Source: Candidatus Yanofskybacteria bacterium (GTDB taxonomy: Bacteria > Patescibacteriota > Minisyncoccia > 2-02-FULL-40-12 > IGHO2-01-FULL-4-A). Taken from it: a stretch of DNA of 64,000 bases. The notes beneath the pieces are model-generated. The model was given only the letters and a program-made list of their open reading frames with translations. It was not told where the DNA came from and searched no databases. This document shows, one piece after another, positions 20,539 to 21,740 of the stretch. Every line of letters begins with the position of its first letter. The first letter of the stretch is position 1. The position numbers and the translations under genes are program-made. The stretch lies in NCBI GenBank assembly GCA_016181175.1, contig JACOZV010000002.1:115-64114 (forward strand), written 5' to 3'.

Positions 20539-20565
20539 TTTGGCTAGTTAGCAAAATACGAAAAC

Positions 20566-20594
20566 TTGCATTTCTTTTGGGTTTATGTTATAAT
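20566..20594 (+). promoter_or_regulatory. Sigma70-like promoter (TTGCAT - 17 nt - TATAAT) driving the GC-rich ORF and the downstream array
   Basis: Near-consensus hexamers 57 bp upstream of the ATG at 20651; RBS GAGGAGAATCAGGAA. Confidence 0.5.
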
Positions 20595-20650
20595 GAAAGT
20601 GTTAAAAATCTCGTTGTTTAACAACCCAATTTGTAGAGGAGAATCAGGAA

Positions 20651-21682
20651 ATGACCAGAAAACCCAATGCAGTAAAGGGCAATGGAAACGGTTTTGCTAG
20701 GCCTTTGGGTCTGGCAAAACCAATCGGAGCGGCTGGTTTTGCCGCCTCCGCTCTAAGCACAGAAGGCTTGCGAGTGGCTTCGCAAGTGCGCAATGCGCAC
20801 TTGGCAATCGCCAAACGCACCGATCCCGATACCAAGGAGCTTGAGAAGCGTACTAAGCACCTTGAGAGTTTCGTTGACGGCAAGCTCAAGGAGTACGCCA
20901 CAAGTCACCCCACGTTCTTTTGGTGGAGCCGGATAACAGGCTGCTATCTGGAGATCATGGGCAAAATCCTCGGCATCATTGAGGAATTCGGAAAGTGGTA
21001 TCCCGCCGGGGACGTCATGATTCCGCCGGGCATCAAATATCCTCAGCCGGTGGATGACGGTAGTGGTAATCTCTGGGTTTTCGTCCGGGGGATTGAGCGT
21101 CTGACCAAACCGAGCGCCCTGCGCAAGTTTGCCGGTTTAACCCCGGAAAGCAAGCGCGAGGCTGGTGAGTTGTTGGAGTTCAACCTTGAGCTCCGGACGA
21201 TTCTGTTCCGGCTTGGCCAGTTTGGTTTCATGTTCAGGAAGAACAGGTACTACGAGCAGTACCTTCTTTACAAGGGCTGGAAGCTGGCCGAGCTTGGACG
21301 TCTTGGTGTCAAGGTGATGCCTACGCCCAAAGGTCGCTACTGTGCCAAATGTGTTCAGGAGAAGACAGTCCCAAAGACGACCTTCTTCTGCCCCGATTGC
21401 AACACCAAACTGTCTCCCAAAAAGGAGCAGGAGGGGGTGTTGTTTGAGGGGCATCTGGACATGATGTGCCGGCGGTGGATGGTTCAGAGATTTTTGGACC
21501 ACCTCTGGGCCATTTGGCGCGAAGCCGAGGGCTTGCCAGTAACCAATCCCTACGTGCAGGGCATACTCGGCCACGTGGACATCATCGACCCGTGGCAGAT
21601 GTGCGACAAAGACGTGGGGTCTTTGGAACGGGTGTCCGACGCCGACGTCACGACCGAGGAGAGCAAAACGGTAACGGTCTAA
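20651..21682 (+). CDS. GC-rich hypothetical protein. The central region weakly resembles the HhH 'Transposase_20' domain of IS110-family recombinases, followed by a CxxC-x12-CxxC zinc ribbon. No DEDD/RuvC-like catalytic domain was recognised.
   Basis: 343 aa, about 55% GC against the ~38% genome background. WSRITGCYLEIMGKILGIIEEFGKW...TKPSALRKFAGLTPESKREAG aligns by eye with the IS110-type ...IPGIG..AA.L.AEIGD..RF.S...L.AYAGL.P....SG pattern. Zinc ribbon CAKC...CPDC. Low-complexity Gly/Ala-rich N-terminus. Confidence 0.55.
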   Translation: MTRKPNAVKGNGNGFARPLGLAKPIGAAGFAASALSTEGLRVASQVRNAHLAIAKRTDPDTKELEKRTKHLESFVDGKLKEYATSHPTFFWWSRITGCYLEIMGKILGIIEEFGKWYPAGDVMIPPGIKYPQPVDDGSGNLWVFVRGIERLTKPSALRKFAGLTPESKREAGELLEFNLELRTILFRLGQFGFMFRKNRYYEQYLLYKGWKLAELGRLGVKVMPTPKGRYCAKCVQEKTVPKTTFFCPDCNTKLSPKKEQEGVLFEGHLDMMCRRWMVQRFLDHLWAIWREAEGLPVTNPYVQGILGHVDIIDPWQMCDKDVGSLERVSDADVTTEESKTVTV

Positions 21683-21740
21683 GACCGTTACACACGGGCT
21701 CAACCTTCTGAAGGTTGAGCCCAAATCTTTTTGGCAGTGG

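Follow-up and report, generated by a model that had tools for sequence, protein, structure and literature searches.

An unannotated dual-repeat TIGR-TasA locus in a Candidatus Yanofskybacteria genome

We analyzed a 64-kb stretch of DNA (hereafter the window) from a metagenome-assembled genome (MAG) of Candidatus Yanofskybacteria, in the candidate phyla radiation (CPR, or Patescibacteria). The focus was on a module flanked on one side by the terminator (20513-20540) of a gene for a small membrane protein and on the other by the 3' end of cysS. It consists, in this order, of a promoter, a 5' untranslated region (5' UTR), an open reading frame (ORF) for 343 amino acids, two hairpins, a repeat array and an intrinsic terminator. 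We report that this is a genuine, intact and unannotated dual-repeat TIGR-TasA locus. The ORF (20651-21682, plus strand), here called tasA, starts with an ATG codon 9 nt downstream of a GAGGAG motif, and its product is 100% identical to the 'hypothetical protein HYT61_01960' that NCBI lists on a 142-kb contig. The neighbors of the module are the core genes recR, dnaB, cysS, Nramp and hrcA, and no integrase or phage genes were found in the surrounding part of the window.

The module differs from its surroundings in base composition. The GC content is 55.2% in the ORF and 47.1% in the array, compared to 39.6% in the remaining window. An earlier note on this DNA had described a GC-rich islet that starts at the promoter and stays at about 55% GC up to the end of the array. 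The jump at the promoter is real, but the higher value applies to the ORF only.

Several searches assigned the product of the ORF to the Tas family. The NCBIfam profile NF052498 (TIGR_Tas_endo, 'TIGR-Tas system RNA-guided endonuclease') matched residues 36-290 with an E-value of 8.4e-21, covering nearly the whole profile. In a single-sequence search of PDB chains with phmmer, the C-terminal 57 residues matched 9mty_A (E=1.6e-4) and also TasH. A profile built from 13 homologs was much more sensitive and found TaTasR (9mty) at E=8.8e-22 and TasH at E=2.6e-12. The profile alignment enters TasR at residue 140, past the RuvC domain of that protein. The 9mty entry is a TIGR-TasR-tigRNA-DNA complex, in which the depositors named the chain 'Transposase IS116/IS110/IS902 C-terminal domain-containing protein'. 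An AlphaFold2 model based on the 13-sequence alignment (pLDDT 81.7, pTM 0.78) led to the same assignment. When this model was compared to the PDB with Foldseek, the top 11 matches were all TasR or TasH complexes (E-values 1.8e-7 to 3e-3, TM up to 0.68), with TasR 9mty at E=1.8e-7 and TasH at E=1.8e-6 (probability 1.0, TM 0.5-0.68).

In the model, nothing but 26 disordered residues (1-26) lies N-terminal to a coiled-coil hairpin (residues 27-85, with long helices 27-53 and 59-85). The hairpin is followed by a helical Nop-type C-terminal domain (residues 89-317) and by a disordered tail (residues 326-343), and both the coiled coil and the Nop-type domain are homologous to those of characterized Tas proteins. 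Further elements are a beta wedge insertion (residues ~115-146), a Cys4 zinc ribbon (residues ~219-265; C231, C234, C247 and C250) and a putative processing loop with Y301 and H308. The CxxC-x12-CxxC zinc ribbon had already been recognized in the earlier note. What the note took for a ~100-residue C-terminal extension behind the ribbon comprises the last Nop helix, the putative processing loop with the Y/H pair and about 30 disordered residues at the end. No HNH or RuvC nuclease domain precedes the coiled coil, and Pfam detected no nuclease domain and only chance-level zinc-ribbon matches in the ORF, in agreement with the note, which had seen no catalytic domain either. Because no domain is present N-terminal to the coiled coil, the protein is of the TasA type, which is defined as the nuclease-free form of Tas. 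TIGR-Tas systems were described in 2025, with CPR bacteria among the hosts (Faure et al., Science 2025, PMC12045711), and nuclease-free TasA is the most common Tas form and thought to be ancestral (PMC12045711).

The earlier note had favored a different origin, namely a domesticated or inactivated IS110 recombinase. According to this view, the ORF would be a decayed IS110 transposase without its DEDD domain, and the array a degenerate relic resembling a bridge RNA. The underlying observation, a likeness to the RNA-binding (Transposase_20-type) region of IS110 proteins, is correct. Directly after the Tas structures, and before matches that were only noise, Foldseek reported the IS110-family proteins IS621 and ISCro4 at E-values of ~1e-2 (probability 1.0), and the RNA-binding domains of Tas and IS110 proteins are related according to the published view. 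However, neither Transposase_20 (PF02371) nor DEDD_Tnp_IS110 (PF01548) had a Pfam match in the ORF even at E<=10, and the protein has neither the DEDD (RuvC-like) N-terminal domain nor the Transposase_20 domain with the catalytic serine. The match to Tas structures surpassed that to IS110 structures by about five orders of magnitude, and around 3,900 cluster representatives have the same architecture as the window protein. A dN/dS ratio of 0.059 and an intact processing dyad (both discussed below) argue that the gene is not decaying. The searches with profile hidden Markov models and structures, which the note had itself named as a check, place the ORF in the Tas family and not among IS110 remnants. 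This assignment refutes the decay scenario, which we consider very improbable.

Sequence comparison also points to a conserved processing site. In the phmmer alignment, Y301 and H308 lie opposite Y289 and H296 of SpTasH, the catalytic residues of metal-independent pre-tigRNA maturation (PMC13421893). Both residues are invariant in the 13-sequence alignment, and a PY..GH motif is present in at least 114 of 162 relatives. Residues 303-308 of the loop have pLDDT values under 50, as expected of a flexible loop. The Y/H dyad has been reported to be typical of dual-repeat systems and to be absent from stem-loop systems. The C-terminal loop of the window protein carries such a dyad, aligned to the one of SpTasH, and is predicted to be catalytic.

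Two segments of the protein have no counterpart in TaTasR according to the profile alignment, the beta insertion (~115-146) and the zinc ribbon (~219-265). Judged by helix order, the beta insertion appears to sit at the 'wedge' position, and the zinc ribbon, which is located between the last two long Nop helices, appears to correspond to insertion 2 of Xu et al. The ribbon is basic (9 K/R in 48 residues) and might, speculatively, add nucleic-acid contacts. In the 13-sequence alignment, it is found in P0002-P0011 and missing from P0012 and P0013. A rough pattern count identified it in at least 25 of the 162 relatives, mostly the closest ones, and some relatives bear extra zinc ribbons. The Tas literature that we searched contained no mention of zinc in Tas proteins or of an extended beta wedge in dual-repeat TasA, and it describes dual-repeat Tas cores as compact. 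A clade of dual-repeat TasA proteins with zinc ribbon and long wedge is new in a modest sense.

The dual-repeat TIGR array (21741-22430, plus strand) comprises 19 units, which measure 36 nt except for one of 37 nt. With units defined by anchoring on the repeat cores, each unit consists of an edge repeat RAGYGAGCCA, spacer A (8-9 nt), a loop repeat RAGNAACCCA and spacer B (8-9 nt). The pattern GAGCCA-N9-AGNAACCCA was matched 19 times, compared to 0.23 matches expected by chance, and was found nowhere else in the window. The earlier note was right in coupling the ORF to a guide-like repeat array. Both repeats begin with (R)AG and end with CCA (box C). They therefore have matching ends, as demanded by the symmetric-dimer model, in which both repeats must present the same end motifs, even though their box D does not read UG as in TasR arrays. 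[quoted passage not shown]

This anatomy agrees with published descriptions. [quoted passage not shown] In the arrays of the window and of its syntenic counterpart described below, counting by eye gave no convincing covariation for an extra base pair in the edge repeat (position 4 with 7). Rfam searches of the region and of the whole window returned nothing for the array, the hairpins or a structured element downstream. Long minus-strand ORFs run across the array, and one could ask whether the array is a protein-coding 12-residue repeat on that strand. However, the 37-nt unit breaks these ORFs across frames, and the conserved positions follow the 10-nt repeats and are not codon-periodic. The ORFs are by-products of a period that is divisible by three.

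Some guides of the array are related to each other. Guides 8 (21997-22032; AGACACGTG / CTCACAGTG) and 14 (22214-22249; AGAAATGTG / CTCCCAGTG) differ at 3 of 18 spacer positions, a likeness with P about 0.003 under column shuffling, and guide 13 (22178-22213) differs from guide 14 at 6 of 18 positions. The related guides may be directed against variants of one site, or the units may have been duplicated and then diverged. Adjacent units were not significantly more alike than distant ones (p = 0.25).

Linkage of gene and array is not limited to the window. A word-indexed search identified 12 homologs with 30-55% identity, and a full profile search 3,916 cluster representatives at E<=1e-3, 97 of them at E<=1e-30. 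Related loci were found in other Yanofskybacteria, in Saccharibacteria, in one Woesearchaeota (DPANN) MAG and on IMG/VR viral contigs, and the homolog in L004 is part of a phage-like contig that encodes a lysozyme and has many small genes. The homologous gene is accompanied by adjacent arrays with an 18/36-nt period in L001, L003 (several arrays), L004, L005, L006, L008, L009, L011, L015 and others, with similar repeats (GAGCGAGCCA and GAGAAACCCA). In L001, CTA replaces CCA at the end of both repeats, so the motif shifts in both together. In most array-bearing loci, the GC content of the tas gene exceeds that of its flanks, and the contrast seen in the window is therefore a property of the cassette and not of this genome alone. 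Among the supplementary files of the Science 2025 paper that were searched, none mentioned Yanofskybacteria, HYT61 or JACOZZ.

Two of the related loci have unusual array arrangements. In L001, the same array end and terminator are present both upstream and downstream of tas (5850-5905 and 7346-7395). In L003, at least five separate array blocks are distributed over 5 kb (5308-10066), and one of them restarts after a terminator and an AT-rich, promoter-like stretch.

The gene neighborhoods also bear on how TasA might act. The protein could merely find the target and recruit a nuclease or another effector encoded elsewhere, for example via the zinc ribbon or an N-terminal GLxKP peptide, and DNA would then be cut or modified. 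The zinc ribbon and the GLxKP motif are conserved within the clade, and TasA loci are sometimes found in operons with ParB-like partners (PMC12045711). However, there is no conserved partner gene beside tasA in the window, L001, L003, L004 or L005, and the small membrane-protein gene that precedes the module in the window is missing in L005. Moreover, published TasA complexes show no cleavage (bioRxiv 10.64898/2026.09.09.750476). We therefore regard recruitment of a separate effector as quite unlikely.

The most informative relative is L005 (JACOZZ010000027), another Yanofskybacteria MAG with the same order of recR, dnaB, module and cysS. We compared the cassettes at 20561-22470 of the window and 4783-6340 of L005. 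DNA similarity starts sharply at position 20561 of the window, just ahead of the promoter. At the amino acid level, identity between the two genomes is 92% for TasA, 93% for DnaB, 83% for RecR, 78% for Nramp, 73% for HrcA and 64-70% for CysS. For tasA, we calculated a dN/dS ratio of 0.059 at a dS of 0.64, and by this measure the gene is under strong purifying selection. Synonymous sites of dnaB and recR are saturated (pS 0.70-0.76). This could result from an exchange of the cassette between the lineages after they had split, or from GC-rich codon usage (GC3 0.68) that restrains its synonymous sites. The array of L005 is made up of 10 units, and none of its spacers recurs among the 19 units of the window. 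Even the closest single pair of spacers differs at 2 of 9 positions.

The presence of the same module in L005 rules out both gene decay and chimeric assembly. An abrupt GC change can result from an assembly chimera, and the earlier note had asked for a check in this respect. However, the junctions are the same in an independent and diverged MAG, where the module also lies between dnaB and cysS. We consider it scarcely conceivable that the GC-rich islet arose by chimeric assembly or that the array is a coding repeat. In L005 itself, cysS matches in two pieces that meet at ~7346-7349 (6594-7930), suggesting that the gene is frameshifted or that this MAG was misassembled there.

Two orthologous loci in which all spacers have turned over and the cassette looks 'younger', as well as related guides inside one array, represent a modest advance over what has been described. 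Tentatively, it is possible that cassettes are exchanged among related CPR lineages, that arrays renew in place, partly by whole-unit duplication and divergence, and that the clade-specific zinc ribbon is an undescribed functional add-on of dual-repeat TasA.

The control elements of the module could be identified on both sides of the gene. The promoter (20566-20594, plus strand) consists of TTGCAT (20566-20571), a spacing of 17 nt and TATAAT (20589-20594), with a TGT before the -10 hexamer that makes it an extended -10 promoter. It was missed by a consensus scan, as the -35 hexamer matches at 3 of 6 bases, and was read directly from the sequence. The earlier note had given the same two hexamers and spacing, and L005 has the counterpart TTGCGT-17-CATAAT. 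The 5' UTR (20595-20650, plus strand; 56 nt) contains a palindrome, GTTGTT-T-AACAAC (20613-20625), and the ribosome binding site GAGGAG (20636-20641). Promoter and 5' UTR are ~90% identical to L005, more than the flanking coding DNA. The palindrome is located between the -10 hexamer and the ribosome binding site and has 5-bp arms in L005 (GTTGT-TTG-ACAAC). An operator function is conceivable, as is a small hairpin in the 5' UTR, and no guide matches the palindrome.

Of the two hairpins downstream, hairpin 1 (21671-21691, plus strand; GTAACGGTC-TAA-GACCGTTAC, 9 bp with a TAA loop) spans the tasA stop codon. It is probably incidental, because it is not conserved in L005. Hairpin 2 (21696-21722, plus strand; GGGCTCAACCTT-CTG-AAGGTTGAGCCC, 12 bp, followed by AAATCTTTTT) is located in the leader that separates tasA from the array, and its 3' arm ends with GAGCCC, similar to an edge repeat. 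Together, the two hairpins have a folding energy of -34.9 kcal/mol (z = -5.5). Both had been noticed before, except that the CTG loop of hairpin 2 has 3 nt and not 4. The stem of hairpin 2 is kept in L005, with one compensatory and one wobble change, and the T-run is missing there. Hairpin 2 may act as a partial terminator or as a stabilizer of the mRNA 3' end. The terminator at the end of the array is also kept in L005.

Together, these observations are best explained by a dual-repeat TIGR-TasA system that performs RNA-guided DNA binding and silencing, and we consider this very likely. Family, domain architecture, array anatomy, gene-array linkage and purifying selection are established by the analyses above. 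For processing, the tandem-spacer mode of targeting and repression, we rely on analogy with published relatives, which produce 36-nt tigRNAs and use tandem-spacer targeting. A single transcript would run from the extended -10 promoter through tasA, read through the leader hairpins and the array, and stop at the terminator (22432-22465). TasA would dimerize via its coiled coil and bind the precursor, with one protomer on an edge repeat and the other on a loop repeat. The Y301/H308 loop would then cut the precursor in each edge repeat in a metal-free reaction, to give 19 different tigRNAs of 36 nt. In the target, spacer A (8-9 nt) would pair with one DNA strand, and in the adjacent segment spacer B would pair with the opposite strand, while the wedge would keep the strands apart, and no protospacer-adjacent motif (PAM) would be needed. 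Since TasA has no nuclease, the complex should bind without cutting and most likely keeps phages or other mobile DNA from being transcribed or replicated. TasA has been described as an RNA-guided, reversible transcriptional repressor (bioRxiv 10.64898/2026.09.09.750476).

Several points weigh against this interpretation. With 74.9 bits, the NF052498 score is under the curated equivalog cut-off of 100, so the NCBI pipeline would leave the protein unnamed, which explains the 'hypothetical protein' of the public record. A score of this size is no surprise, given that the protein is divergent and has two insertions that TaTasR lacks, and identity to the solved Tas proteins is just 13-17%. Transcription and processing at this locus are predictions. 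Hairpin 2, between tasA and the array, was terminator-like in our scan, and the scan found no separate promoter for the array. We therefore assume co-transcription of tasA and array, and array transcription is the weakest link of the proposed mechanism. The repressing protein MbTasA has been discussed together with stem-loop systems, and repression by a dual-repeat TasA would be an extrapolation. Finally, in the 64-kb window and in the fetched loci, no spacer pair has a match that exceeds chance expectation.

The target search considered all four concatenations of spacers A and B on both strands of the window. No match with up to 2 mismatches was found, and the few matches with 3 mismatches were all in arrangements with both spacers on one strand. 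When spacers of the window and of L005 were compared to all fetched loci (269 kb), a single match with 2 mismatches was obtained, in the phage-like L004. We rejected this candidate, because it involves guide 1, whose spacer B looks like a degenerate repeat, and because ~0.65 such matches are expected by chance. Sites of 16-18 nt occur by chance in large collections, and the authors in the field report the same limit on target searches.

The search is also relevant for the idea that the module has been domesticated and that TasA and its tigRNAs regulate host genes, with guides that tune the cell's own chromosome rather than serving defense or competition among mobile elements. The location among core genes, away from integrase and phage genes, fits this idea, as do the conservation of the site in a second Yanofskybacteria genome and the strong purifying selection. 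In addition, reprogrammed TIGR-Tas can silence a chromosomal gene (bioRxiv 10.64898/2026.09.09.750476). However, in the 64-kb window, which is only part of the genome, no spacer pair has a match at <=2 mismatches in any strand arrangement, and orthologous arrays without common spacers fit fast-changing external targets better than conserved host genes. Host gene regulation thus appears unlikely, and silencing of phages or other mobile DNA is the explanation that we prefer.

Dual-repeat TIGR-TasA systems such as FpTasA of Flavonifractor plautii (PMC12045711) are the closest known counterparts. As in the window, a solo protein with coiled coil and Nop domain and without nuclease is followed downstream by an array of two alternating ~10-nt repeats with ~9-nt spacers and a 36-nt period. 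The box C CCA in both repeats, the truncated terminal edge repeat with terminator, the C-terminal Y/H loop and the occurrence in CPR hosts are also shared. By comparison with published descriptions of such systems, the window protein adds the Cys4 zinc ribbon and an extended beta wedge, its repeats start with (R)AG and not with UG, and its array has 19 units instead of the usual 5-15. TaTasR (9mty) and SpTasH (9w03, 9w04, 21kl), the best structural and profile matches, have the same coiled-coil dimerization module, Nop domain, Y/H motif (...PY....GH...P) and dual-repeat guide type. Unlike the window protein, which has only the 26 disordered residues in this place, they possess RuvC or HNH nuclease domains at the N-terminus and cleave DNA. 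They also have neither zinc ribbon nor long wedge, and their identity to the window protein is the 13-17% given above.

The relationship to other RNA-guided systems is more distant. The bridge-RNA recombinases IS621 and ISCro4 have a related RNA-binding fold, and the loops of their guide RNA read both DNA strands. In contrast to these, the window protein lacks the DEDD/RuvC and catalytic serine domains and is silent with the Pfam models, transposon ends are absent, and the guides come from a multi-unit array and not from a single bridge RNA. In archaeal and eukaryotic box C/D small nucleolar ribonucleoproteins (Nop5, Nop56/58), according to a published comparison, a Nop coiled-coil dimer is positioned on a pseudo-symmetric guide RNA via motifs of the box C/D type. 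The window protein differs from them in that it has no fibrillarin-binding N-terminal domain, that a partner of the L7Ae/kink-turn type is not evident, and that the predicted target is DNA and not RNA. No Nop5 or Nop56/58 structure was among the 50 Foldseek matches listed.

Two features next to the module appear to be separate from it. Upstream, an ORF for 133 amino acids (20086-20487) encodes a small membrane protein with one N-terminal hydrophobic segment and a charged tail, which is probably a coiled coil. It belongs to no Pfam family and is absent from the syntenic locus in L005. As it is absent there, the gene is considered lineage-specific and outside of the module.

Directly 3' of the array terminator, we observed a structured element of ~180-270 nt (22480-22650, plus strand), with the cysS stop codon inside its 3' end. 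Other copies are located at ~59820-60045 (minus strand) of the window, at 6345-6600 of L005 and in L020-L026, and the element occurs on seven groundwater metagenome contigs. The two ends can form a helix (CCTCCTGATTTTC...GAAAATCAGGAGG), for which L020 shows compensatory changes. The inner helices covary (GCTAAGC/GCTTAGC versus GCAAAGC/GCTTTGC), and one hairpin is fully replaced. Some copies have an optional 36-nt hairpin, and the copy in the window has an internal deletion. Between the window and L005, the element is 89% identical, above the flanking genes. RNAalifold prefers the plus strand of the element (-51 versus -35 kcal/mol), and there is no match in Rfam. The groundwater contigs with the element that we checked contained no tas gene, no array of this kind and no homolog of the genes adjacent in the window. 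We considered the element as a part of the TIGR system and rejected this, since the surroundings of the other copies are unrelated and contain neither tas nor arrays. The element probably represents an undescribed noncoding RNA or a MITE-like (miniature inverted-repeat transposable element) repeat of groundwater Parcubacteria.

The locus does not represent a new kind of system, as TIGR-Tas has been known since 2025, with CPR hosts. Of the novel ribonucleoprotein module suggested in the earlier note, the guide-coupled ribonucleoprotein stands and the novelty does not. The finding is of interest because this TIGR-TasA locus of a CPR bacterium is chromosomal, has clear boundaries and can be compared to an ortholog, and because the module is recognizable from the raw sequence while public annotation still misses it. 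The zinc-ribbon clade of dual-repeat TasA may interest engineers of compact, PAM-free DNA binders. The pair of loci bears on two open questions of the field, the natural targets of TIGR systems and the acquisition of spacers by their arrays. If cassettes are indeed exchanged and arrays renewed in place, this would provide a natural handle on how TIGR arrays gain guides.

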